From a virus (lineage: Duplodnaviria; Caudoviricetes), in IMG/VR virus record IMGVR_UViG_3300020375_000001, positions 128,001 through 192,000 of that record: a stretch of 64,000 nucleotides of DNA; one strand, given 5' to 3'. This document shows, piece by piece, positions 3,810-61,445 of this stretch (position 1 is the stretch's first letter; each line of letters opens with the position of its first letter). The translations under genes were made by a program, and so were the position numbers. A model generated the notes under the pieces. That model was not told where the DNA came from and did not search any database. It worked only from the letters and a program-made list of their open reading frames with translations.

Positions 3810-4004
3810 CTAAGAGTCAATTTCTACAAACAGTAGAGTGATAGCCGCAATAACTATCACCCACCTTCTTATTAGTGACCACGGGGTACTGCTTTTATTT
3901 TCCCTTGGTCGATAGTGGCGACGTCCGTCGCACACGTGTGCCATACTAGATACACATCCGTATTTCTTATTCCAGTCTGCGCATGTAAGGCAAGTTTTCT
4001 TCAT
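3810..4004 (-). CDS. Small Cys-rich protein with C-terminal hydrophobic helix
   Basis: CxxC...C...C N-terminus and WVIVIAAITLLFV segment. ATGA overlap with the upstream ORF. Confidence 0.6.
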   Translation of the reverse strand: MKKTCLTCADWNKKYGCVSSMAHVCDGRRHYRPRENKSSTPWSLIRRWVIVIAAITLLFVEIDS

Positions 4005-4744
4005 TTGTTACTCTTTTCCCAAATTCTTAATAATCGTGCCCCATCTTCTTTTAACATTAAATCACTGACTTTGAGCTGTTCGGTTGCCCACTGGTCTGGA
4101 GTAAACAACTCTTTGTCAAAGCGTTCTGACACCTCACCTTTTAGGTTTACAACACACCAAGGATTATTTTGAATGAGGTCGTTATATTTAGCAACTGTCT
4201 CACTGTCCATATCCAGCTTAATTAGCGATGTGTGTTTAGCATCTGTCAGGGATGGATACTTGCGAATTACGATATCCCACGTGTAGCCCGATACCAGTAA
4301 ATCACATACGTTGTTGTCAAATTCCACCAGCCAACAGTACTTCAGTTTCACCGGCTTATTCTTCACTGAGTTATCCCAGATTTGCTCCAACCGCATGTAC
4401 GTGTAAATGATGCTGTGGAAATATCCCGGAAACACTTTAGGATATTGCCCCTCTAAACGAGCATTGAGTTCGTTTACTTCCACACACAAATCGACGATGG
4501 CATGGGTCATTGCCTTATGCTTTTCGTCTTTCTCAAAGCAGACCTCAATTGAATTTGCTTCCAATAAAGGATTGGTGGTGAAGTACTTATCGATAAGCAG
4601 TACAAAGAGGTTTTTCTTTGCCCCAAAGTCAGCCACCAGATGTGTTAATATTGCTTTACGTACAAAAGCGTTGATATACATTTGAAACTGCGTTTTGTAC
4701 ATATAGTTCATGTTACCCATTACCATATTGCATCCCCACTCCAA
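4001..4744 (-). CDS. Hypothetical protein
   Basis: 247 aa ORF in operon context; start uncertain. Confidence 0.75.
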   Translation of the reverse strand: MEWGCNMVMGNMNYMYKTQFQMYINAFVRKAILTHLVADFGAKKNLFVLLIDKYFTTNPLLEANSIEVCFEKDEKHKAMTHAIVDLCVEVNELNARLEGQYPKVFPGYFHSIIYTYMRLEQIWDNSVKNKPVKLKYCWLVEFDNNVCDLLVSGYTWDIVIRKYPSLTDAKHTSLIKLDMDSETVAKYNDLIQNNPWCVVNLKGEVSERFDKELFTPDQWATEQLKVSDLMLKEDGARLLRIWEKSNK

Positions 4745-4866
4745 TTAAAACGACCCCATATACAACGGTCACGATAGCGCCACCAAATATAAGAGCACTT
4801 AACCATGGTTGTTTGTGTGCAAAATTGGCAGCTTTAATTATAAACTTTTCCACTAATACTTTTCCA

Positions 4867-5154
4867 TTAATGACCATAGTTGAAACCAATCCAGAAACTG
4901 TTACCCGTCTTAGCGTTGGTTACTTTCTCATCCGTAGAACCACAGCACCCAGCCTCTTGCACTCGACGATACTTGTCGGTCATTCCGCCAGTTTCATCAG
5001 CAAGGCACACCCGAGCATTATCTACGCATCCACCCTTTTCAATTTTTCGATACAACTTACCCATTTGATTACATAGCCACAAGTAGTCCTTTGTGTTATC
5101 AACTACCTGTCTAACCATGTGTCCGTATATTTTAGTATTAAACGTTTGTGGCAT
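4867..5154 (-). CDS. Hypothetical protein (95 aa, GCCG motif)
   Basis: Leader TTAAATAAAAGGAA with SD, downstream of a candidate early promoter. Confidence 0.7.
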   Translation of the reverse strand: MPQTFNTKIYGHMVRQVVDNTKDYLWLCNQMGKLYRKIEKGGCVDNARVCLADETGGMTDKYRRVQEAGCCGSTDEKVTNAKTGNSFWIGFNYGH

Positions 5155-5297
5155 TTCCCCTTCCTTTTATTTAAGAGATAACGGTACCCATCAATAAGAT
5201 AATCGGACTCAATAATTTTTGCCCTATCACAACTTCTACATTAAGTATCTGTCCACTTGGATAATATAGGGCTGTAATATTCTGGTCTACGGCATAA

Positions 5298-5317
5298 GTG
5301 GACGGTTTCCCGTCCAC
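5298..5317 (-). terminator. Terminator hairpin with adjacent TATGCCG motif
   Basis: GTGGACGG-TTTC-CCGTCCAC directly after the stop of 5326..6969. Confidence 0.7.
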
Positions 5318-5325
5318 CCATTTAG

Positions 5326-6969
5326 CTACACGGCACGTACCATGAAACCAGACACGCCCAAGTAAAGGTCTTCGTGTTCGGCCTCAATAATCCATACCAC
5401 GCCTACCAATGCACCCGTATCTAACTTCACACCAAAGTTCAGTGTTTGATTCCACGATGAGATTGGATAGCGTTTACGCTCTTCACCTACCACCACATCA
5501 AAGTGGGTTGGTACAGGCGCAGACGATTCAATGGCTTTATCGTACAGCGGTAGCGTTGGACGGAAGGTCTTAGTTAACCACTCGTCCACGGAGTTCGCAT
5601 CTACATCTAACTTAAATGCGTAATCCGATACCGTTACCAGACGCTGTTCCGCGTAGATACCTTCACCATAGGCTTGGCCACCATGGTCTTCGTAATGCAC
5701 TAACCAGCTTACCGTATTCGAGATACGTGGCGGACCAAAGACCACCAGCTTAATGCTTTGTACATGACGATATGGTGCGTACGATGCATCTACTTCGTTC
5801 AGACGGATAGATACAGTAAACGTTTGTTCCACACCCCACAAGGTAGGGTTAAACGTACCCAAAGAACCTTCACCGTACGTAACCAAGTTAGTCACTTCCA
5901 GAATTTCTGAACGAGACAGGTTAGCCAAGAAGTAGCGCGGCTTCCACATACTACCGTCCCAATCAGGGTACACAAACAACTTAAGGTTGTATTCGTGTTG
6001 AGCAGGTAGCGTATGAATGCTGTACTCTTTGGTAATGTGGTTGCTTCCTGTAGCAGATTGCTTCGTTGAGATTTCATTAGCATCCATGCGGTAGCTTAGT
6101 ACCAGAGGATGATTGTAATCAGGCGAAGACGCTACGTAGTTATCCAAACCGTAAACACTAAAACGAGTGCCATCAACTGGATGTGTGACACGGTCACCGT
6201 TATTGTAGATAACCTCTGCCATAAGACCTAACGAGGACACAGGCAGGTTTACAGGAACTTCTAAGACGTTTGAATCAGTACGCATCCATGGGGACTTAAG
6301 ACTGATGCCGCTGACATAGCGAGCACTGTTCAATCCCTTGTTGGACAACGCCGTTTCTACCACGACCATTTCCGTAGTAGAAATCCGACCACCCTGTTCA
6401 TTGAAGATAACGGCGGTAACGATATCGCCGCCGGTCAATGTATGGGTAGTATGGGATTGCTCTGGTGTAAATGCAGTATGAATACCTGGCTCACCCTGCT
6501 GGATAGGCTCAAGACCCACACGGTCATTTAGGTAATTACCAGTGCCGTCGTAGTTCTTCGAAATGACTTCGTCAACTTGTTCGTCATTGTACCCAAGGTA
6601 ATACTTAACATGGTCTGCGTCCTTACGGTACAGACGCAACTTAGCGTCTGCCGTAATAGTAGCTGGAACAACTGAGTTGTCCACATGTAAGACGTAATAC
6701 TCGCGAGGAGTATGACCACCATTACCGAGGAGAACGTCCAAGCCAGACGCATCGATGTTTTGATTAGGAGCCTGCCACGGTTCTACGATAGAAATCCCCG
6801 TGTCAACATTCAGGCTAATGCATCGCATTGGCCCATGGACCCAGCTCCAAATCATGTCATCAACGTTAGGACATACCTGACCAGTCCCGTTCGGGCCGGT
6901 ATAGATGTCCTTTTCAGAATGGACAGTAAAACTTCTGTCCAACTGAATGATAGGTCTTTTAATAGACAT
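5326..6969 (-). CDS. Virion structural/baseplate protein (phiKZ gp26-like)
   Basis: Size (547 aa) and position in the conserved terL-gp26-gp27-gp28 / sheath-tube block. Confidence 0.75.
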   Translation of the reverse strand: MSIKRPIIQLDRSFTVHSEKDIYTGPNGTGQVCPNVDDMIWSWVHGPMRCISLNVDTGISIVEPWQAPNQNIDASGLDVLLGNGGHTPREYYVLHVDNSVVPATITADAKLRLYRKDADHVKYYLGYNDEQVDEVISKNYDGTGNYLNDRVGLEPIQQGEPGIHTAFTPEQSHTTHTLTGGDIVTAVIFNEQGGRISTTEMVVVETALSNKGLNSARYVSGISLKSPWMRTDSNVLEVPVNLPVSSLGLMAEVIYNNGDRVTHPVDGTRFSVYGLDNYVASSPDYNHPLVLSYRMDANEISTKQSATGSNHITKEYSIHTLPAQHEYNLKLFVYPDWDGSMWKPRYFLANLSRSEILEVTNLVTYGEGSLGTFNPTLWGVEQTFTVSIRLNEVDASYAPYRHVQSIKLVVFGPPRISNTVSWLVHYEDHGGQAYGEGIYAEQRLVTVSDYAFKLDVDANSVDEWLTKTFRPTLPLYDKAIESSAPVPTHFDVVVGEERKRYPISSWNQTLNFGVKLDTGALVGVVWIIEAEHEDLYLGVSGFMVRAV

Positions 6970-6974
6970 TGTTG

Positions 6975-9503
6975 CTATTCCCCATTATCAGTTTTAATAG
7001 TCAAGTGACCGGTCATGTCAACTCGACCATTTAGATAAAGTAGTGATACCCTATCCATAAACGAGTAAACTTTTTGCGGTACTTCAATTAAGGTACCACT
7101 GGCATGTGGACGAGCCGAAACTAATCCTGACTCCACCGCACCATCAAGTCCAGTTTTAGCAATATCGAACTTCAATAAGTATTCGTACTGCTTTACCATG
7201 GTTTTGATTTTACTATCCAGGATACGGTAATCCGGAATATGCAGTACCCCAGTAATCGCATCGTCCAAAATACGCGCACAGAAGATACTGTACATTTGGT
7301 GGCGATAGGGAATTGGGGATACATTTGTAAATGGTGGTATCGGTGCATGTAGCGTTAGATAGTCACGGACAATCTTGTCGCGGCTCAGTGCGTCAGAGCG
7401 AAGAGACTTTTCTGCACTGGGTGGGATACCAATTGCCTGTAGACGAGGCCTAACCATGGAGATAGAATAAGGTGCACCGTTACGTAGTGACCCATTTACT
7501 CCACGATACTCCTCATGTCTTTCCACATAACTACGTTGCAGATGTTTGTTATCTACATTAGCACGATACAATAACCCACTGTGTAGGTCATACCCGTTCC
7601 CTACATTAATCATGCCGTGGTCAACCCAACCTACGTGTTCAGGTCTACCCCAGTCAACGTATCCTTCACCACCGTCATCGGGGAAGTCGTAAGCTACAAT
7701 AAAGACTTCGTTGTCCCCTTCCGCCTTTAAGTGGGTTGTAGAACTAATCCAGATTGATTGACGATTAATCTCGTAATCAATTCCCTGTACCAATTCTTTC
7801 CCGTTGAGGCGAACGATGATTCTACGGAATGGAAGCTCCATTGTACCGTTGGCATCTACCAGACTAACTTCACCTACACCCTGACGCAGCGGTAGCACAA
7901 ATGTTTTACTCCATGCCCAACCTGAGTGACGAACCACCCATTCATGATTAGGACTAGAATAGTTGTGACGTAGGAAGCCGTCTTTCTGGTCGGTAAAAGA
8001 TACAGACTTGGTAATGTCTACCCAATCCTGCGTCCCATTGAGGCGATGGTACAAACGATACTCGCGGTGACCAGAAGGAACCAATTCCGTATTGTAATAA
8101 TCCGGACAGTCTTCTACAAATTCATCCTCGAAGAATTCAACTAGGGCAGTCTCCCGTTCGGAGTAACCTAAGCCATCGTCTCGAATGCGTTTTATGGCCA
8201 GTACGTTATCGTCTTTATCATACTCCACCATTGTCCCTTTGCGGTATGCCTCAGGTGCTACAATACGCTGAATGCCACCCGTATTAAAAACAGGTTGTTG
8301 GTTATCGGCGCTGTAGTACGCAATGGAGTTGTAACCGTAACAGCGATACAGGTCAATAGTTACCGCACTATCAATCTTAGGTAGCCGCATGACTTTAGGA
8401 TAGGCTGAGCGTTCCAAAGAAGTAATGTCCCACAAACTACAAGAGGTTACTTTACCAGTAATGATATTGTAGCGTTGTTCTTCCGGTAACTTATTTAACT
8501 CGTGTAGACGGTTGTTTTCGAAAATCAGTGGACGTTTGTACCCTGACTCTCTGACAGTGAGGCGAATAAAGGCTTCACCTAACTCCAACTCCTGACGAAT
8601 ATATTCGACCTGGTCGACGTTGACTGAATATGTGGCAGACGCAAGCATCCGCACGTTCTCCGGCTTGTTACGGTTTAACAACAAACCTTTAGTCACCAAC
8701 CCATCCGCATTCTTTTTACAGATACGAATTTCGATGTCATCGTGATACCGAATAGTTTCAGCAACCCCAAGGTCAACCACATACTTACGTGCATTGTCCA
8801 AATTGGAGTAAGCGTAATAAAGGCTGTCCAGAGAGATGTCAATGACTTCTTCAATAGAATCGTCTACACGCACTTCTAGCGTGTCCCCTACCAAAATGTT
8901 AGCAGGTGGCAAACTTTCTACTAAAACACCGTTGTGGATTAACTGAGGCTTCTTACCGTACAGTTTTGCAGCGTGCCACTTATTGTACAAAGTTAGAACC
9001 GCCTGCTCGTTGGAACTAATGCGAGTAATGCCCTCTACCCAAAAATCCAATTCCTCAGATGAGCGCTGCGATGCCCAGTAAGCGTTAGTATAATGATGGA
9101 AGTAAATGTCCTCATTTACCATGTCCACATATTTACTTTCGCGGATTGCCAATAGTACTGTTTTATTATCCAACTGAATGATGAATACTTCATGCAGAGG
9201 AAGGAGCAGACCCTTGGTATTATAAATGTTTATCGTACACTTACTCTCCGAAGATAACCCCGCCAAAGGTAACCAAGTGTTAGTTACCCCTTTAAGGCCA
9301 AACAGTGCTGGAGGATAGTGTCCGATTTGATAGACAATATAGTTGTCTCTGGTTGGTGTTTGCAATTCGTCCCAACCAAGAACGATACGTTCGTATACGC
9401 CACGAACTTTACCGTAACGGACTGGCTTTAAAATTGCCTGACGGTCTTGTTCTGGGGTACACCAAACATTTCGAATGGCATGTTGTTGTAAAAACGCGGA
9501 CAC
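6975..9503 (-). CDS. Virion structural/baseplate protein (phiKZ gp27-like)
   Basis: N-terminal HAIRNVWCTPEQDRQ motif characteristic of the family; synteny. Confidence 0.8.
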   Translation of the reverse strand: MSAFLQQHAIRNVWCTPEQDRQAILKPVRYGKVRGVYERIVLGWDELQTPTRDNYIVYQIGHYPPALFGLKGVTNTWLPLAGLSSESKCTINIYNTKGLLLPLHEVFIIQLDNKTVLLAIRESKYVDMVNEDIYFHHYTNAYWASQRSSEELDFWVEGITRISSNEQAVLTLYNKWHAAKLYGKKPQLIHNGVLVESLPPANILVGDTLEVRVDDSIEEVIDISLDSLYYAYSNLDNARKYVVDLGVAETIRYHDDIEIRICKKNADGLVTKGLLLNRNKPENVRMLASATYSVNVDQVEYIRQELELGEAFIRLTVRESGYKRPLIFENNRLHELNKLPEEQRYNIITGKVTSCSLWDITSLERSAYPKVMRLPKIDSAVTIDLYRCYGYNSIAYYSADNQQPVFNTGGIQRIVAPEAYRKGTMVEYDKDDNVLAIKRIRDDGLGYSERETALVEFFEDEFVEDCPDYYNTELVPSGHREYRLYHRLNGTQDWVDITKSVSFTDQKDGFLRHNYSSPNHEWVVRHSGWAWSKTFVLPLRQGVGEVSLVDANGTMELPFRRIIVRLNGKELVQGIDYEINRQSIWISSTTHLKAEGDNEVFIVAYDFPDDGGEGYVDWGRPEHVGWVDHGMINVGNGYDLHSGLLYRANVDNKHLQRSYVERHEEYRGVNGSLRNGAPYSISMVRPRLQAIGIPPSAEKSLRSDALSRDKIVRDYLTLHAPIPPFTNVSPIPYRHQMYSIFCARILDDAITGVLHIPDYRILDSKIKTMVKQYEYLLKFDIAKTGLDGAVESGLVSARPHASGTLIEVPQKVYSFMDRVSLLYLNGRVDMTGHLTIKTDNGE

Positions 9504-21000: not shown

Positions 21001-23562
21001 TTACAAATTTGCAAAGTATTCGTCCGCTACCTTTTTGGAGAGAACTTCTAAAACCCGATTGGTAGTGCCCATGATATCGGGACTTAGTACGATACGGTTA
21101 GCAATCGACTGACGCCCAAAGATTACATCAATCGGTTCCCCGCTCTCGGTTTCGTTAGTACCAGTCATTACCCGCCCGATAATGGTCTTCAGCTGATTAC
21201 CCAATACCGCCTTATCACCGACCCCTGCAGGGAGTGACTTAGTGATATAAATCTTAATAACCGCTTGGTCCATTACAAGTCGACGTCCCTCAACGTTGAT
21301 AGGTTCGTTTACTTGTCCGGTGGTGGCATCTTCCAGAGAAAGACTTTTGACTCGTTCAGCCCGTTCTTTATCAGCTCGGTTGACGATAGTCTTAAGTGAA
21401 CTAGACATGTCGGCTTTGTCACCGTTATAGAGAACTTCGATTTTCTCTACCACACCTTTGTTCTTTGCCTTAGGGTTTAACTGACCCAACGCCTTTAGAG
21501 ATTCCGCACTTTCACTATCAATAAGCGAGTTATTGGCCGTTAGTTGGTCCTCTAGCGTACATAGGATAGTTTCTAAATCTACTTCATCTCCGACTTTTAC
21601 AAGATTTAAAATACCCTGTTCGAAGTCAATTACGATGTTTCGCACCGCTGTGATTTCAGTAGAAAGACCCGCACCCAGTTTTTCCGATACCGCACAGGAG
21701 TCCTCAAGTGTATCTACTGACTCCATCAATGCCACGTTAACAAGCGCACCTGCTTTCCAGTTGACCTGAGTATTATCATCATAGTCACGTTCAAAGAAAC
21801 CAGTGTTCCAAGACAGGATATGTCCCGCCTTAAACTTCTGGCCTTTAATCAAGTCAGACTCAATGCGCTGGGGTACGTGAGTACCGTTAACTGTACCGTA
21901 AACCGTTCCCAGTTCAATCTTCACAGAGCTGCCGTCTTTGTACTCAACTGTCAGGTGCGTTTCCCCAACATCCGTTACCTTCCCTTCTTGCTCCGCTGCA
22001 ACAGCGAACATTGGGTCGACACGGTGAGCCAATACTTGTTCGTATCCAGTGGATAATGGCATGACCTTGTAGTTCTCAGCGGCAACGCCATGAGAATGCT
22101 GAATACTAATGAAGTTTGTCCGCTTAGGGTCATCACTGGTTGCACCCGGTGACAGAATAGCAGACGTTGACAACAGTTTGGTAGCTGACTTCTCTTTACT
22201 ATCCACTCGCTTAGTTGTACCACGAATTGAATCAAAGTTCGGGTCCGCAGTTAAGTAAGTGTTAATAGCTACTGAGCCAGAGTCCACCGTTGCTTCTGAA
22301 ATAACACCCATGTCGTTCTTGTGGTATACACGCGAACTCGCTACCATGGAACGAGAGGAACGACCGCCATCACCAGAGTAAGTCACCAGTTCTTTCTCTT
22401 TCAGGTTATGGACAGGGTTCAACTCTTCTACCGTTTTAGTAGTAGCATCTTTTAGGATGTTCATCCACACAGCTTTTGGATTCATCTCAATGCGAGACTG
22501 AGAGCTCATGGGCTGTGCTTGTTGTTTACGAATAGAAGCAATCAGCTCTTTGTAGATAAAGCCAGGCATACGCTCGTAGCCTTTGATGCGCATATATTCC
22601 GTATCAGTCTCATCAGGAGTTCGGTCGTCTTTTAGCAGTTCAACTGCTTTGACTACCAGCCCTTCAAAAGACCGTGGCTCTTTACGACGCTCTAAGATAC
22701 CATCGGTAATGGGGTCGATAAATAAAGGTTGCAGTAAATCCATCTCACGAATGAAACGAAGTCCCACACCACGAGATTCCAACACTGGTTGGTATACCGT
22801 CTTCTTATCAAACTCTTCGCGGTTGAATTGTTTGATTGCCGAACGATACTCGTAGAACCCATTTAGCAACATGGTGATTTCTGGGTCATCCGTTGGGTAA
22901 ATAAGCGTTTCATCTTTAAAGACGATACTGGCTTCCCCATCCTCTAACTCTACCCGCTGCCCCTTACGTACCGAACGAGTCTTTACTTTAATAATGCGTA
23001 GCAACTTGGTTAAACCAAGCATGTAGCCCAGTACTACGCCCGCCGGTATAGCCGTCGAGAATATCTTAACTTCGGCCATGTCGTTGGGTTCTTTACCCAA
23101 ATCAGTGCCGAGCAGACTAGCCAGACTACCAATAGTGTCAACATTGCCATCAACGTCGCTGTAATGATACAGGCCAGCGTTATCCAAGGTAATGAACTTG
23201 TTACCTTTCCCTTTACCGCAGACCACGTGTCCACGACGTTCAAGTTTCTTAAGTACGTCCGCACCATAAAGAACTTCTCGTTTATCGTACTCATACGACA
23301 TGTCACCAGCAGCACACTTAAAACTAAGAATGCCTTTAGCCATTCCACTATAGGTTGGTGGAACTTTCGCTGACTTACTGACCGCATTACCCTGACGAAC
23401 GGAAGTGATAATTGTGTTTTCATCATCCACTCCAAGCGTAATAATCTTTTTACGCTGCCATGCCGAACGGTCATAGACCGCCTTCGAGCTTCGAGTTACG
23501 AACAGCTTACCGTAATAACTGGTTAGCGCTACGGTATCTGCCTTGGTTTTACGGATGGGAAG
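21001..23562 (-). CDS. rpoB: Virion RNA polymerase beta subunit (phiKZ gp178-like), exon 2
   Basis: Begins LPIRK after the intron terminal G. RpoB motifs SDDPKRTNFISIQHSH, GDKAVLGNQLKT and DVIFGRQS. Confidence 0.9.
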   Translation of the reverse strand, partial: LPIRKTKADTVALTSYYGKLFVTRSSKAVYDRSAWQRKKIITLGVDDENTIITSVRQGNAVSKSAKVPPTYSGMAKGILSFKCAAGDMSYEYDKREVLYGADVLKKLERRGHVVCGKGKGNKFITLDNAGLYHYSDVDGNVDTIGSLASLLGTDLGKEPNDMAEVKIFSTAIPAGVVLGYMLGLTKLLRIIKVKTRSVRKGQRVELEDGEASIVFKDETLIYPTDDPEITMLLNGFYEYRSAIKQFNREEFDKKTVYQPVLESRGVGLRFIREMDLLQPLFIDPITDGILERRKEPRSFEGLVVKAVELLKDDRTPDETDTEYMRIKGYERMPGFIYKELIASIRKQQAQPMSSQSRIEMNPKAVWMNILKDATTKTVEELNPVHNLKEKELVTYSGDGGRSSRSMVASSRVYHKNDMGVISEATVDSGSVAINTYLTADPNFDSIRGTTKRVDSKEKSATKLLSTSAILSPGATSDDPKRTNFISIQHSHGVAAENYKVMPLSTGYEQVLAHRVDPMFAVAAEQEGKVTDVGETHLTVEYKDGSSVKIELGTVYGTVNGTHVPQRIESDLIKGQKFKAGHILSWNTGFFERDYDDNTQVNWKAGALVNVALMESVDTLEDSCAVSEKLGAGLSTEITAVRNIVIDFEQGILNLVKVGDEVDLETILCTLEDQLTANNSLIDSESAESLKALGQLNPKAKNKGVVEKIEVLYNGDKADMSSSLKTIVNRADKERAERVKSLSLEDATTGQVNEPINVEGRRLVMDQAVIKIYITKSLPAGVGDKAVLGNQLKTIIGRVMTGTNETESGEPIDVIFGRQSIANRIVLSPDIMGTTNRVLEVLSKKVADEYFANL

Positions 23563-25103
23563 CACCCCCATCCAAAGTGGACCATATCTTCATCCTCAAT
23601 TGAGGAGCCTACCGTTTGGGGTTTCCCCTACTCTACTCACTTCAATCACTTGTGTGACCAACCGATTATTACACCACGGTCGTCATTAGTCCGTACTATG
23701 TACGAATGTAGTTTTCGATGGCCTCTGAACACATCCCGTATCTAACGACTTAGGGACTTCGCTGCGTCGGTTATGTCTCCATTAAACGTTTTTACCCTGC
23801 CACCCTCTTCCATTACTGGGGATGGTATTGTGGCGTGTTTCCACCCACAAGTGGTAGTTTAATAGATTATAGACATTTTCCCGCAATTAGGTAGGTTTGT
23901 CTTAGTCGTATTACTACGACTGGGAGACCCTATGTTAATTGGTTTTAAATTATCGAGATATTAAGTTTAGCTAACTCGAGTGAAAGCATCTTCCTAAGTC
24001 TTCTTCTATCCAAATCAAGATAGTTCAATACTACTAGCGGAATCTGTTTACTATTAGCTAACTTTACTTTATCCCAATCCCGCATCTTGGTTTCCTCTAA
24101 AGCTTCGTAACCACCGAACCGTTCTACTGGCTCATAGTGTTGGATACCGTGAAACTCAATGAGTACTTCAAATTTGGGTAGAAAGAAATCGTATCTAAAT
24201 AACGACCCGTCGAATTTATATTCTCTTTTAAACTCAATCCCGTTTACTTCCAAGATATGTGCTATCTGACGCTCACCTAAAGATTCCCTACATCTAGGGC
24301 AACCCTGTTTCTGGGAAACGTGTCGGTTAGGATTAGTTTTAAAAGGACCATGTCCTTTACAGACCACCGTTATAGGTGTCTTGTTATTGACATACTCGAC
24401 TCTGTCGTAATTGTAGATATGACCATGTACCTGTTGTGCCTCAGCTATAAAATCTTCTAAAGTCTTTTTAGTCGACTCACGATAGCAGGCTGGACACCCA
24501 GAACCATTTAGGTGTACCCTAGCCTTTTGATGGAATGTCCCATGTTTGAAACACCCAATCTTTACGGTTTCGGTATAACCCCTGAAATCAAGGTTTTGGT
24601 AACAGTACTTGTTGCCATGTACTAACTTAGCTTTTTCTAGGAACTTCCCTTTATCCATTATGGCTTCCGAAGTCGCACACGTTGGACAATTGGTCCCCAA
24701 CTTGTAATGATTATAGGGCTTTACTTTAAAATCCCCATGCTCCCTACAGGTAACGATAATAGGTGTATCGGTGTTACTAAACACCACCTTATCGTAGAGG
24801 TAGCGGTCACCGTGTTGTTCTTTAGCCAATTTAATAAAATCATCTTTAGTAAATTTACCGGAACAAGCCAAACAACCTTTAGAGCCTCTAACTAAGTAAC
24901 ACGGCTTGGTTATATATTCACCGTGTTCCATACAACGAACTTTAATAGGTTTCTTAGAACCTAAGTATTTTGACTCCGAAAAATCTAATGAGTCATTATA
25001 CATTTCTTTCATCTTGTCGTAGAATTCTTTCTCTCTACGTTTAAAACCTTTTAACATAATTCATATCTCATGGATATTATTCACATAAGATATGTTGCTT
25101 TTT
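23563..25103 (-). mobile_element. Group I self-splicing intron (1541 nt) carrying a homing endonuclease
   Basis: P AAUUGCGGGAAA, Q CGCAGC, R GUUCAGAGGCCA, S AAGAUAUGGUCC. P3 CCUACC/GGUAGG, P7 GGCCA/UGGUC, P8 UCCUC-AAUU-GAGGA. IGS GUCUCCC pairs with exon GGGAGAU (U.G at the splice site). Ends in G. Splicing gives in-frame KQRGD-LPIRK. Confidence 0.92.
23945..25057 (-). CDS. Intron-encoded homing endonuclease (DUF723-like Zn repeats plus EDxHD/Vsr-like nuclease)
   Basis: Four C-x2-H...G-x1-2-C-x2-C repeats. C-terminal GERQIAHIL...RYDFFLP...LIEFHGIQH. Confidence 0.88.
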   Translation of the reverse strand: MLKGFKRREKEFYDKMKEMYNDSLDFSESKYLGSKKPIKVRCMEHGEYITKPCYLVRGSKGCLACSGKFTKDDFIKLAKEQHGDRYLYDKVVFSNTDTPIIVTCREHGDFKVKPYNHYKLGTNCPTCATSEAIMDKGKFLEKAKLVHGNKYCYQNLDFRGYTETVKIGCFKHGTFHQKARVHLNGSGCPACYRESTKKTLEDFIAEAQQVHGHIYNYDRVEYVNNKTPITVVCKGHGPFKTNPNRHVSQKQGCPRCRESLGERQIAHILEVNGIEFKREYKFDGSLFRYDFFLPKFEVLIEFHGIQHYEPVERFGGYEALEETKMRDWDKVKLANSKQIPLVVLNYLDLDRRRLRKMLSLELAKLNISII

Positions 25104-26529: not shown

Positions 26530-26781
26530 TTAAAAGATGGTGTAATTTAGTAGGAACTGTTCTTCGCTTAGTTGTTCATAAAAGCCGTGGTCGTTCCTAA
26601 TGATGATAAATCCCGAAGGGACGTACACGGTGGCGGTGCCATCTGGAATCCGCACACCGCCATCTGGACCTTTGGTAATTCTACCTTTACCCCAAGCGAT
26701 AATCTCTTCCTGCACTTCTGTATCGAACTCAACTTTACGGAACGATACAAGGTTAGCTTTTAAAGTAGCCTGCATTTTCAT
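26530..26781 (-). CDS. Small hypothetical protein
   Basis: 83 aa; TAATG overlap with the upstream gene. Confidence 0.65.
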   Translation of the reverse strand: MKMQATLKANLVSFRKVEFDTEVQEEIIAWGKGRITKGPDGGVRIPDGTATVYVPSGFIIIRNDHGFYEQLSEEQFLLNYTIF

Positions 26782-27188
26782 TATTTAAGCTCCCGGTTAA
26801 CATTCCAACCAAATTTAATCTGCTTAGCTGGTATATCTTTAGTATAACCAAATGTACCAAAGCGATTAATGGAGTCCAACCAATTCCCCTTACCGGAGTC
26901 TTCGTCAGCTACCGCAAATTCAGGTAGTAGCCCACTAACTTCGAAGACATCAAAGTCCCCGAACTTTTTAAGGAACTCATGGTGCAAATTAACGTTACCG
27001 CTATGGGCAAGGTAAATGGCTTTCTTCTCAGGTGCAGGACCGTACCCAGATGGGTCAGTATCTAAACTTAACCCGTCCTTAAGTATGGATTCTCGATTCT
27101 TTCTAGGGCTATAGTGGTAGAAGACATCTTTCTTAAACTGTCGTTCTTCCTTAATGGCCTCTAGACCTTCGGCTAGTATGGGTCTCAT
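26781..27188 (-). CDS. Putative ADP-ribosyltransferase-fold protein (Tpt1/KptA-like)
   Basis: FYHYS..NRESILKDGL, AIYLA and terminal DIPAKQI match the ART core strands. TAATG-coupled to vRNAP beta-prime. Confidence 0.55.
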   Translation of the reverse strand: MRPILAEGLEAIKEERQFKKDVFYHYSPRKNRESILKDGLSLDTDPSGYGPAPEKKAIYLAHSGNVNLHHEFLKKFGDFDVFEVSGLLPEFAVADEDSGKGNWLDSINRFGTFGYTKDIPAKQIKFGWNVNRELK

Positions 27189-28825
27189 TATTTCAATACC
27201 TTTTCTGAACCGAAAGTTAAACCACGTAACAACCAGTCGATAGTATCCGTACCAAACATCTGTAATCCACCACGAGGGTCGATGTAACCAGTAGGCTTAT
27301 CAAAATACTTGTGAATTTCACTTTCGGCATCATCTGACATCAGGAAGTTACAACTTACTGTATCACCATCGAAGTCAGCACCTAGACCTACGAGTCGGTT
27401 AGGGTTAACACCAATGGTATCGAAGAACGGAACATTGAAGCGCGGGAACTCGTAAGCAACGTGTTCATCGTCCATCGGTTCCCACTGGTCATCAAGTTCA
27501 CGTAAGATGTCACCTTCAACCGTAGTCTTTAAATAGACCGTCGAAGGATACGTTGAACCTAGGCCGGTAATTGGATATCGGGTAATGGTACACGTCAAAC
27601 GATTCCAGTGACGATACCCGGCGATGTACAGGAACTCAGCATACGTTACCGGGTGACACTTTTCTTTTTGGCTAGGTACCAATCGGTCAAACTCACCAGG
27701 GTTTAATAGACGGAAGTGTTGCTCGTCTTTAAAAATCAGAGCAAGATACTTACCTTCTACCAAGATAGGCTTATGGCGAATGGAAGCATTCCCGTAATAG
27801 TTGATGAACTTCTCGAGTCCTTCTACTGTGGTCCAGCGGTCCATGGTTTCCGTGGTAACATTAACCCAGACAGTTTTCTTTGTCTTGCGGTCTACCAATG
27901 GAACATTCGTACCGCCAGTAAATATTTTCGAGAGGTGTCCTTTAGATAACCATGAAGTAGTTAAAGGTAGAACCCCTTTCGCCGTTTGGTATAAACCCAC
28001 TACGGTGTCAGTGGAGTCGATACTACGTGGACTGTCCAAGTCGTCGGTACCAACATCCATGGAAGTGATTACGTTACGTGTACCGTTGAAGATACGACGT
28101 GAACCCCACTTAGCCTGAATGAAACCTTTCTTACCAGTGATAAACGTTTCAAGATGCTCGTAGATAGCATTGATGGCTAACTGGAGCGAGTAGCGCGAAC
28201 GGTCATAGACCGGGTCGTTATTGTTATTAACGTTCACGGCTATCGTATTGGCAACGGAGAGTACTTTACGATACATGTCGTTAATCTCATCTTCTTGGGT
28301 ATACCCGTCTTCTGAGACTTGTACTTCACGTAACCCAGCAGGCAACACTAACCATTTATTGGTGGTGGCCGTGTCACGATATTTTTCAATTACGCTAATC
28401 CGTAGATTACGCTGGTCAGACTCCGTCTTCTTAAAACGCAGGTCTTTAAAATGGGACATGAAGAAAGCGTAACCAGTTTCCCCCTCTACTTCGCTAGATG
28501 CAACGAAGTCTTTCTCACCAGCAACCCATTTGGCATATTTCTTACCGGCAAGGATTTCACCATACAGTCCTTTAATACGAACAAGGTGGCGATGGATTAA
28601 AGGGTGGAGTACTTGTACTTTCAAGTCGATGAAACTAAAACGGTTACTTCTTTCCGTGGTACCAGACGCACCGAAGATAGAAACAGAGTAGAGTCCATCT
28701 TCATGGAAGTTTGTAGTGCCGCCATCGTATATATCTGAAACCCTAACAGGTTTCATGGATGCAGTATTCTGACCCGTCAAGTTTAACAGTTGAACATTGA
28801 ACGGCATCTTGCCTATTGCTGTCAT
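27188..28825 (-). CDS. rpoC: Virion RNA polymerase beta-prime subunit (phiKZ gp180-like)
   Basis: Catalytic GADFDGD, ITRYP, GLYSVSIFG and RNVIT motifs. Confidence 0.95.
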   Translation of the reverse strand: MTAIGKMPFNVQLLNLTGQNTASMKPVRVSDIYDGGTTNFHEDGLYSVSIFGASGTTERSNRFSFIDLKVQVLHPLIHRHLVRIKGLYGEILAGKKYAKWVAGEKDFVASSEVEGETGYAFFMSHFKDLRFKKTESDQRNLRISVIEKYRDTATTNKWLVLPAGLREVQVSEDGYTQEDEINDMYRKVLSVANTIAVNVNNNNDPVYDRSRYSLQLAINAIYEHLETFITGKKGFIQAKWGSRRIFNGTRNVITSMDVGTDDLDSPRSIDSTDTVVGLYQTAKGVLPLTTSWLSKGHLSKIFTGGTNVPLVDRKTKKTVWVNVTTETMDRWTTVEGLEKFINYYGNASIRHKPILVEGKYLALIFKDEQHFRLLNPGEFDRLVPSQKEKCHPVTYAEFLYIAGYRHWNRLTCTITRYPITGLGSTYPSTVYLKTTVEGDILRELDDQWEPMDDEHVAYEFPRFNVPFFDTIGVNPNRLVGLGADFDGDTVSCNFLMSDDAESEIHKYFDKPTGYIDPRGGLQMFGTDTIDWLLRGLTFGSEKVLK

Positions 28826-28899
28826 ATTGCTGTTCCTATGATTAGGTGGTCTTATTATAGGCGACCACAGTATTTTTTAAATTAGAAAAGGAGTCCGTT

Positions 28900-40109: not shown

Positions 40110-40589
40110 TTAAGTTATATTATTGACTAACACTCGAAAGTCAATTGCTTCGGTGACGTAGGACTTTATTTTTCTACAATAGTAGCTGTGCTTAGTTTCG
40201 CTTGTATCGCGTACTCTCACCAACGACGTTGAGAGTTCATCTAAGACACTTCTAAGGTCTCTGTCTACTTTAGCAATTGGGTATGGGTACCCGTCTTTGT
40301 TTGTCAAATAGTTTGTTAATGTTATTTCTCCTTTATCTACGCTTACGTGTTTAATGGGTGGTATGTCCTCTAACATGGCTACGGCTTCACGTAACCTAGT
40401 TAAAGAGTCTACCAGCTTTTCTGCTGAAGCACACTTGGACATAATCGACATTTTGTCTAACTGTTTAGAAGAGGGCTCTTCTTTACTGTACGATTCGATG
40501 TAAATCTGATTATGTAAGCGGTACTCCCATGCATCTTTGTCGGAGTTAAATTTACTGAGCTTCCGCTTAGTTAGCCACTTCTTTAACAT
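40110..40589 (-). CDS. Hypothetical protein
   Basis: 159 aa; coupled to the upstream gene. Confidence 0.7.
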   Translation of the reverse strand: MLKKWLTKRKLSKFNSDKDAWEYRLHNQIYIESYSKEEPSSKQLDKMSIMSKCASAEKLVDSLTRLREAVAMLEDIPPIKHVSVDKGEITLTNYLTNKDGYPYPIAKVDRDLRSVLDELSTSLVRVRDTSETKHSYYCRKIKSYVTEAIDFRVLVNNIT

Positions 40590-59584: not shown

Positions 59585-60766
59585 TTAACTTACGGAATAC
59601 CCATTAAGAATGTTTTCCCATTCTTTCCAAGTTAGTTCTACATCGCCAAAAGGTGCAGGAATAACAACATCCTCGCCTTCTTCTGGCCAATCTACAGTTG
59701 GTAAATAGTTTACCAAGTTCAATTCCAATTCCTGACGTTGCTCGTCAGTAAGTTCGATTAGTTTCATTTTACGAAACTCCTTCTCAGGCACGTCTTTGTG
59801 ACGGACAGGGTTGAACTTAAGAGATGGATATTTCCACTCCACAAATTCAATGTCCTTCACCTTACCCAGCAGCTCAGAAAAACGCCCCGTGGTTATCGGG
59901 TAGAATTTGCGAGCCAGTTTGAAATCTACCGCATCTTGCAGCATGGCAAAAGTGATGGGGCTCAGACCAGCATTGTCATAAACAGAACTCCACTTGTAAT
60001 TCAGCTTACGTAACATGGCCTCCATCAGTGCAGTGTCGTTGAAGTTAAATTCGTCACTAATGATTAGCAGCGCACTACAACCATTAACCCCGCCACTTAC
60101 AATGACACGCCAGCCATCTGGTCCAATTTTACCCAGCGGCTCTTTTACTTTACAAATGGTCAGTGCACCTTGCGACAGAGTTTCACGCGGCAAAGGGGAC
60201 AGTCGTCCACCACCCAAGGTCATCCATTCATCTGTACCATACGGCAACATCATCTCACGGTCGCTTGTGACGCCAACTAACATACCAGTGCGGTAAGTCA
60301 TGCCGCGACCTATAAAGATGCGGTGTGTGTCCACTACGGGCGTTATATCGACAGTCTCAGCGTCGATTACCAGACCACCATCGTCAAAGCCAGATACCGG
60401 TGTAGTTTTACTTGGTGGGAAACTGGTACCAATTGAATTACTGTATTCGGCAACTGTTAATGGCTCACCAATCTCTACCCAGTTCTTTTCCAAAGCCAAT
60501 TCATTAATCTGACGTTGCCAGTCTCCAGACAACCCTATGATTTGGTCACTGTCGAAAAATACGTTGGGTTTCATCCATATCAGGCAGTCCATATAACGGA
60601 CCGATGGGATGTCTTCTTTCAGTTCGGGTGAAAGAGAGTATCTGACGGCAAAGTCTAACTCGTCGATTTTGTCAAACAACTTGTGGTTATCGGGCAGGTC
60701 ACCCAATCCCACGAAACGAACGCGTCCACGTGCAATGTTTGTAGTTGCAGTATTTTCAGTTTGCAT
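59585..60766 (-). CDS. Hypothetical protein (393 aa)
   Basis: Long ORF behind a candidate early promoter. Confidence 0.8.
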   Translation of the reverse strand: MQTENTATTNIARGRVRFVGLGDLPDNHKLFDKIDELDFAVRYSLSPELKEDIPSVRYMDCLIWMKPNVFFDSDQIIGLSGDWQRQINELALEKNWVEIGEPLTVAEYSNSIGTSFPPSKTTPVSGFDDGGLVIDAETVDITPVVDTHRIFIGRGMTYRTGMLVGVTSDREMMLPYGTDEWMTLGGGRLSPLPRETLSQGALTICKVKEPLGKIGPDGWRVIVSGGVNGCSALLIISDEFNFNDTALMEAMLRKLNYKWSSVYDNAGLSPITFAMLQDAVDFKLARKFYPITTGRFSELLGKVKDIEFVEWKYPSLKFNPVRHKDVPEKEFRKMKLIELTDEQRQELELNLVNYLPTVDWPEEGEDVVIPAPFGDVELTWKEWENILNGYSVS

Positions 60767-60893: not shown

Positions 60894-61445
60894 TTATGGC
60901 GCTGGTTCTTCAGCTGCCGCTGCTTCTGCTGCAGCTACTGCTGCGTCATGGTCAGCCTTAGCTTGGTCAGCTTCTTCTTGTGTCCAGACGTACCAGTTCG
61001 AACACTGAAGGTCAAGACGGTTAGGGTGCCAATCTTGGAAAACTTCAAGTTCTTCCGTAGTCAGTTGGAACATTGGTGCATCGTACAGCATGGTAACTGC
61101 TGTAGGGTATTCTGTTAGCGTACCGTCGGCGATTTCTTCCAAAGGTGGCAGCGGTTGTTTAACCGTACCAAGCTCAACCCGCATGAAGAAAGTGTTCCAG
61201 TGATTACATGCCACACTATGACCTTGCTTCATCATATACAGCGCTTCTGTGAAGCTCATTGCGGTAGTAGGTTTGTAAGCAGCATCGAACACGTCTTTTG
61301 GTGACCATGAAACATACCCGTCCGGATAGGTTACTTCATAACCTTCTGTGCCTTCTGGATGACCGTCCATTGATGGATACTGCGGAGTAGCCGCAACAAC
61401 CATAGGAACTGCATCGACTTGTTTAATACCAACGTATTTAGACAT
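60894..61445 (-). CDS. DUF2829/Tad2-like domain fusion protein (putative anti-defence sponge)
   Basis: N-domain KYVGIK.VDA.PM...GYEV.YPDGYVSWSPK.VF.AY; C-domain MSFTEAL..MKQG..V....WN...W.PN..DL...NW. Confidence 0.65.
   Translation of the reverse strand: MSKYVGIKQVDAVPMVVAATPQYPSMDGHPEGTEGYEVTYPDGYVSWSPKDVFDAAYKPTTAMSFTEALYMMKQGHSVACNHWNTFFMRVELGTVKQPLPPLEEIADGTLTEYPTAVTMLYDAPMFQLTTEELEVFQDWHPNRLDLQCSNWYVWTQEEADQAKADHDAAVAAAEAAAAEEPAP

Follow-up and report, generated by a model that had tools for sequence, protein, structure and literature searches.

It is proven that phages use ADP-ribosyltransferases (ARTs) both to take over the host (T4 Alt/Mod) and to counter its defences (AcrIF11). The T4 enzymes Alt, ModA and ModB, of which Alt is packaged and injected, belong to the R-S-E clade, with an Arg on strand β1, an S-T-S motif and an E-x-E motif. 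AcrIF11 (PDB 6KYF, 8DWQ) is a small anti-CRISPR mono-ART of phages and plasmids, carried as accessory anti-defence cargo, and requires H20 and Y46 plus an Asp-Glu pair, D146/E147 or D115/E116 (PMC12421852). Arr (PF12120; PDB 9iaf) is a minimal single-domain ART of ∼140 amino acids (aa); the activity of Arr-ms depends on H19, Y49 and D84 (PMC13246000). DarT and DarT1 (PF14487; PDB 8baq, 7omu, 7omv, 7yk3), of ∼208 aa, transfer ADP-ribose to single-stranded DNA. Finally, Tpt1/KptA enzymes (PF01885; PDB 9ld3, 6e3a, 7yw2) carry an N-terminal winged-helix RNA lobe of defined boundaries and a tetrad of Arg-His-Arg-Arg (PMC6333775). ARTs of jumbo phages have been catalogued and are said to be commonest in groups without an RNA polymerase (RNAP) of their own; KptA-type enzymes are reported in a few jumbo phages (PMC7824862). 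The protein considered here, P0001, is encoded by a 135-aa open reading frame (ORF) inside the operon of the virion RNA polymerase (vRNAP) of an uncultured marine phiKZ-like jumbo phage, which is detected in metagenomes from at least 8 studies. The window, meaning the whole stretch of 64,000 nt that was analysed, covers bases 128001–192000 of IMG/VR record IMGVR_UViG_3300020375_000001, a record of 207,748 bp with direct terminal repeats.

On balance, P0001 appears to be a minimal single-domain NAD+-dependent mono-ART carried as accessory cargo, its catalysis being read from conserved residues. It founds a sequence family that is new within a known kind of enzyme; a mini-ART in a phage that encodes its own RNAP is mildly unusual and not new in kind. 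Judged by its homologues, P0001 is evidently a real gene, beyond chance, because an exhaustive HMMER search of 1.84 billion representative proteins yields matches down to E 3.6e-22 (16 matches, ∼13 of them true relatives, up to E 9e-5). The relatives are 29–50% identical and mostly 93–150 aa long, and no Pfam, PHROG or NCBIfam model covers any of them. P0001 has no match in Pfam (E ≤ 1), PHROG, NCBIfam, PADLOC or the sequences of the PDB. Likewise, no relative is found by tblastn in 50,697 phage records, by an IMG/VR pattern scan or by a word-indexed protein search, and a megablast query with the locus finds nothing among phage records. The family thus sampled appears to be small and uncatalogued, and its members to come from phage contigs only, several of which are phiKZ-like. 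The GC content of the ORF (0.43, and 0.41 at third codon positions) is near that of its neighbours (0.44–0.46), and therefore there is no compositional sign of recent foreign origin. The ORF is covered by metatranscriptome contigs from three runs belonging to two studies. A 12.9-kb contig of one RNA run contains the spliced joint of the β gene (23562^25104) and extends without a break through β exon 1, the neighbouring 83-aa ORF P0002 and P0001 into β′. The spliced joint marks RNA origin at that point; a single transcript is beyond what such contigs can prove, and elsewhere they may include DNA. Within the limits of evidence from RNA-library contigs, co-expression of P0001 with the vRNAP genes, as proposed in a first-pass annotation of the sequence, is supported.

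The same annotation had read P0001 as an ART of the Tpt1/KptA type; the fold stands and the type does not. The structural model was built with a 14-sequence alignment (A2), a single-sequence AlphaFold prediction with a predicted local distance difference test (pLDDT) of 35 being left unused. The alignment-based model reaches a pLDDT of 87.9 and a predicted template modelling score (pTM) of 0.81, and shows the order helix 4–20, strand 23–28, helix 29–38, strand 58–62, helix 68–76 and strands 79–84, 92–94, 112–115 and 124–130. In an exhaustive comparison with 48,161 PDB chains, the best 50 rows all belong to the ADP-ribosyltransferase superfamily; among them are DarTG, PltA, TreX, scabin, pertussis toxin, mouse and yeast Tpt1, Arr and PARP10/13/15/16/1. 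A Foldseek search of the PDB, the check advised at the outset, agrees, with KptA at 5e-4 and DarT1 at 8e-4. BFVD contributes 24 viral matches with values under 1e-3. Many of them come from jumbo phages (PBS1, phage G, PaBG, phiRSL1), and the annotation of some reads DarT, PARP or 2′-phosphotransferase. Neighbours in the ESM Atlas comprise DarT (template modelling (TM) score 0.68), Tpt1, a viral cluster fused to GNAT domains and a Tad6 cluster (TM 0.60). Matches of the family profile to the PDB are weak (KptA, E 0.018; PARP1, 0.14; DarT1, 0.2), and all three align on the motif H-x-[ST]-x3-N-x3-I-L-x2-G-L. Two family members weakly match Pfam PARP and one matches DarT (E 0.017, below the cut-off). 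Collectively, the model and its neighbours support a predicted ART superfamily fold, with a split β-sheet and an NAD+ cleft.

A candidate active site emerges from the family alignment. The motifs on which the ART reading had originally been based are found at residues 24–27 (YHYS), 31–40 (NRESILKDGL), 57–61 (AIYLA) and 119–124 (IPAKQI). Invariant positions are H25, N31, I35, G39, G50, P53 and D95, and near-invariant ones L40, S47, Y59, N65, E96, D97, S106 and G111. There is no invariant basic residue, hence no invariant Arg, and the isoelectric point (pI) ranges from 4.3 to 9.6; the N-terminal helix region (residues 1–22) is missing in several members. His25 lies within the predicted strand 23–28 and aligns with the His of the HG[ST] motif of KptA and PARP, with S/T27 present in 14/14 sequences. 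Tyr59, within the predicted strand 58–62, is kept in 13 of the 14. In the H-Y-[E/D/Q] clade, the catalytic acid stands at the head of the strand that follows an ARTT-type loop; D95 and E96 come directly after the fourth strand of the model (92–94), and their putative role is assigned from this position. Thirty-four residues separate H25 from Y59, and 36 separate Y59 from D95. Two features of the H-Y-[E/D/Q] clade, a His in H-x-[ST] on β1 and an aromatic Tyr on β2, are thus present, and P0001 probably belongs to the H-Y-[D/E] branch that includes PARP, diphtheria toxin, DarT, Arr and AcrIF11, with a presumed catalytic acid among D95 and its neighbours.

Comparison with the described enzymes sets P0001 apart from DarT, Tpt1/KptA and T4 Alt/Mod. 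DarT/DarT1 is the nearest structure, yet P0001 is far shorter (135 aa) than the ∼200-aa architecture of DarT enzymes and has no adjoining DarG-like partner, and basic residues that might bind DNA are not conserved among its relatives. For Tpt1/KptA, the fold match is limited to the NAD lobe (residues 90–180 of the KptA chain). The winged-helix RNA lobe is absent, only helix 4–20 preceding β1, and the Arg-His-Arg-Arg tetrad is absent as well: three of its four residues would lie in the missing lobe, and no invariant Arg occupies the fourth position. P0001 carries instead Tyr and Asp where the pattern of Tpt1/KptA itself differs. Searched against the whole phage genome, the Pfam models PTS_2-RNA (PF01885), DarT (PF14487) and PARP give no match at E ≤ 10, and membership of both the Tpt1/KptA and the DarT families was rejected. 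Arr is close in size, and its H19/Y49/D84 are spaced like H25/Y59/D95 of P0001, which has no PF12120 match in the Pfam search. AcrIF11 shares with P0001 its small size, its Asp-Glu pair and its nature as phage cargo; it differs in having a helical insert that P0001 lacks, it is not among the best 50 structural rows, a listing that does not by itself exclude likeness, no sequence similarity between the two is detected, and no link of P0001 to CRISPR is known. The parallel drawn earlier with T4 Alt and Mod is reduced to a functional analogy. These enzymes are much larger, and P0001, with a His on β1, A-I-Y-L on β2, an acid motif D-E-D and no match to any Pfam ART model, is of the H-Y-D/E and not of the R-S-E type.

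The second half of the argument concerns the place of the gene. On the minus strand, the order is β′, P0001, P0002 and the split β gene (Table 1). The chain of TAATG stop-start overlaps linking β′ to P0001 and P0001 to P0002, noticed in the first-pass annotation, is read directly from both junctions; the distance from P0002 to β exon 1, given earlier as 14 nt, is 13 nt. The vRNAP context also holds, the upstream gene matching phrog_2986 and the downstream 479-aa ORF the start of phrog_3148. A Shine-Dalgarno-like AAAAGG lies ∼10 nt upstream of the P0001 start, within the β′ coding sequence, and GGGAG lies 8 nt upstream of the P0001/P0002 overlap. One-base overlaps occur elsewhere in the ORF list of the window (e.g. 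at 40589 and 51729), and therefore the style of coupling is ordinary for this genome.

Table 1. Features of the vRNAP operon and of P0001 (window positions), followed by the junction after β′ in relatives (positions in their own records)
Feature	Positions	Strand	Remarks
vRNAP β′, N-terminal piece, 545 aa	27188..28825	-	GADFDGD metal-binding motif; phrog_2986, E 1.4e-191
TAATG overlap, β′ stop TAA/P0001 start ATG	27186..27190	-	Read from sequence
P0001, 135-aa ART-fold ORF	26781..27188	-	Open frame, translation, homologues, alignment-based model
His25 codon	27114..27116	-	Invariant; strand β1, H-x-S/T; putative NAD-binding His
Tyr59 codon	27012..27014	-	Near-invariant; strand β2, A-[IV]-Y-L; putative nicotinamide-stacking Tyr
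Asp95-Glu96-Asp97 codons	26898..26906	-	D95 invariant, E96/D97 near-invariant; putative catalytic acid
TAATG overlap, P0001 stop/P0002 start	26779..26783	-	Read from sequence
P0002, 83-aa ORF	26530..26781	-	Homologues at the same place in sister phages L014 and L015
13-nt spacer holding AGGAAA	26517..26529	-	Between P0002 stop TAA and ATG of β exon 1 (26516)
vRNAP β exon 1, 479 aa	25077..26516	-	Matches start of phrog_3148
Intron with homing endonuclease	23945..25057	-	Between β exons 1 and 2
vRNAP β exon 2	21001..23571	-	3′ of the intron in operon order
L014 (IMGVR_UViG_3300002038_000006)	3941-5989		β′ 85% identical, no stop, runs in frame into unrelated 119-aa domain
L015 (IMGVR_UViG_3300009508_000011)	5637-5786		β′ 83%; 48-aa Cys/His-rich ORF in slot
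L016			β′ 66%; β directly next
L017 (IMGVR_UViG_3300027985_001318)			β′ 43%; β directly next
Proteus phage 10			β′ 46%; β directly next

Relatives of the phage were retrieved with the β′ protein, and the junctions following this gene were compared (L014–L017). They do not carry the ART at the same locus: the two sister phages, L014 and L015, have other cargo there, and the more distant relatives have nothing. DNA homology among the three closest phages ends exactly after the last β′ codons, within which AAAAGG is conserved in the sister phages, a ribosome-binding site for whatever gene comes next. In L014, the 119-aa domain that continues β′ has no Pfam match and no usable Atlas match; a P0002 homologue, β exon 1, the endonuclease and exon 2 follow. 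For this β′-cargo ORF, known from one metagenomic assembly, the explanation is a real joining of cargo to a virion polymerase subunit or else a mistake in the assembly. In L015, the 48-aa ORF is overlap-coupled to both of its neighbours; it has an acidic tail as well as C-x2-C and H-C-x2-H motifs, and is followed by a P0002 homologue and an unsplit β gene without intron. The P0001 family is absent from the records of these four relatives, against E 8e-47 for the phage's own genome.

Homologues of P0001 occur in other settings. On another phiKZ-like contig one lies close to the tail module, and a different one follows a homologue of the window gene 59585–60766. A marine contig (L009, 2299–3125) carries two tandem overlap-coupled paralogues with 38% mutual identity, and a further locus (L010, 2929–4483) shows C-terminal fusion of a family member with a GNAT acetyltransferase domain, right after a second GNAT gene. 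A search for a conserved partner gene beside the homologues finds no neighbour common to the loci. Because relatives carry other cargo or none at the junction, and because the homologues share no neighbours, P0001 is accessory cargo in a hypervariable slot and does not belong to the conserved make-up of the polymerase operon. In L017, a side observation concerns the β gene itself, of which the ORF ends at 8784 and homology to exon-2 residues 482–643 restarts at 9130; this suggests an interruption (intron or insertion) at a site other than that found in the present phage.

Taken together, P0001 as a mono-ART cargo would work as follows. An ART gene would have been dropped into a slot located exactly at the 3′ end of the β′ gene, where operon transcription and, via the TAATG overlap, a ready ribosome-binding site would be available. 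P0001 would then be made together with the vRNAP subunits, presumably at the same time. In phiKZ, these subunits are middle-gene products, assembled in the cytoplasm and packaged at ∼10 copies per virion (PMC10612078). In the protein, His25 (H-x-S, β1) and Tyr59 (β2) would hold NAD+, and Asp95 with Glu96 would stabilize the oxocarbenium-like transition state, so that ADP-ribose would pass to the acceptor. A protein acceptor, either a host factor of defence, transcription or translation or a phage protein, seems more likely than DNA or RNA, because of the missing invariant basic residue, the broad pI range and the acidic D-E-D at the presumed active site. Since phiKZ-like phages are independent of host RNAP, the classical target of phage ARTs, host RNAP itself, is unlikely.

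The location of the gene invites another explanation, that of an Alt-like effector delivered by the virion, or of a vRNAP modifier: P0001 would be made with the vRNAP subunits, bind to them or to the capsid, be packaged and leave the virion with the polymerase, and would ADP-ribosylate a host target right at the onset of infection or modify the vRNAP. Translational coupling inside the vRNAP operon, the packaging of vRNAP subunits in phiKZ and the precedent of T4 Alt (PMC7824862) are consistent with it, as is the L014 arrangement, where cargo fused in frame to the β′ C-terminus would travel with the polymerase. Location and L014 fusion are nevertheless the only facts that favour it; the location is unique to this phage, homologues occur in unrelated contexts, and the fusion comes from a single assembly. 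P0001 has no recognizable packaging signal, and the N-terminal helix is missing in several family members; protease-site-like S/A/G-x-E tripeptides in its N-terminus were considered as such a signal and rejected as too short to be meaningful. A complex prediction with the β′ piece and P0001 gives a score of 0.00, which is no verdict and counts neither for nor against binding. An Alt-like role is thus unlikely. Slightly more doubtful still is its stronger form, in which the 3′ junction of β′ would be a dedicated slot whose products travel with the vRNAP and the mini-ART, once ejected into the early infection compartment, would modify a host factor of defence or expression, or the vRNAP, before phage expression. 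If true, a phiKZ-like phage with no need of host RNAP would be following an Alt-like strategy.

An activity on nucleic acids carries the same low probability as the Alt-like role. P0001 would modify DNA bases like DarT, or cap phosphate ends of DNA or RNA like the NAD lobe of Tpt1, and be directed against host nucleic acid or serve RNA repair. The closest structures (DarT1, DarTG and KptA/Tpt1), the top profile match (KptA) and the KptA-type ARTs reported in a few jumbo phages (PMC7824862) point in this direction. Nevertheless, P0001 lacks the RNA lobe of Tpt1 together with three residues of the tetrad, with no conserved Arg for the fourth (PMC6333775), and is 70 residues shorter than DarT. 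The family also lacks invariant basic residues and has a wide pI range, and its presumed active site bears the acidic D-E-D. The proposal that P0001 is an RNA-repair partner of the nearby intron is not supported, given the absence of Tpt1 features and the comparison with a sister phage: L014 keeps the intron without an ART gene, and therefore any functional link with the intron is improbable.

Somewhat less credible than either is a non-catalytic ART-fold protein, binding NAD+ or ADP-ribose, or inhibiting stoichiometrically, for example as a plug for a host NAD-using defence enzyme. Among the Atlas neighbours is the viral cluster bearing Pfam Tad6 (TM 0.60), described as a ThsB binder and not an enzyme (PMC13728456); P0001 lacks the usual Gly of H-G-[ST], and a Tad2-like gene in the same phage indicates that anti-signalling cargo is present in the genome. 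Yet the Tad6 match is at the level of the fold and covers about one-third of a 374-aa protein, and the constancy of H25 and D95, nearly equalled by Y59 and E96, across relatives that are only 29–50% identical is the pattern of a working active site. An Arr-like ART inactivating an antibiotic-like or signalling compound is very improbable, there being no PF12120 match, Arr ranking well below DarT and KptA, the GNAT fusions being equally compatible with protein modification, and no such need being known for a phage.

The 83-aa neighbour has a different history. P0002 is present at the same position in the three closest phages (38% identity in L014, 46% in L015), and therefore its residence in the operon predates that of the ART; of the two genes it is the more stable occupant. 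It has no match in Pfam, PHROG, NCBIfam or PADLOC, and a word-indexed protein search retrieves only P0002 itself. Its Atlas neighbours include the Sequestin, Tad2-like, DUF3310 and PGDYG clusters (TM 0.62–0.69), a likeness at the level of the fold only. A Tad2- or Sequestin-type sponge was considered for P0002 and rejected, with no PF11195 or PF21825 match and no BLAST similarity to the Tad2-like protein of the phage. The single PF11195 match of the genome is located elsewhere, in a 183-aa protein (window 60894–61445, minus strand) with an E-value of 3.6e-9, above the cut-off (match 60987–61259), and a match to phrog_872; this protein is a candidate anti-Thoeris/CBASS signal sponge.

Two further observations concern the surroundings. 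Promoters of the phiKZ type are unlike σ70 promoters. In the divergent intergenic region upstream of β′ (window 28846–28868), a 6-bp inverted repeat, GTGGTC...GACCAC, has a σ70-like TATAAT in its loop. Outside the window, at record positions 101267–101590 (minus strand), a 155-aa frame weakly matches the Macro domain model over nearly the full length (E 7e-4, short of the cut-off) and may be an ADP-ribose eraser of the AdfM type.

Current understanding is unchanged unless a target of P0001 is found. What the finding adds is a mini-ART family absent from the catalogues and made up of ∼13 sequence clusters; its H-Y-D/E signature is clean, and its size is small enough for easy biochemistry. Comparison of sister phages further reveals, within an essential polymerase operon, a hypervariable and translationally coupled cargo slot, which is a useful place to seek accessory and counter-defence genes in marine jumbo phages.
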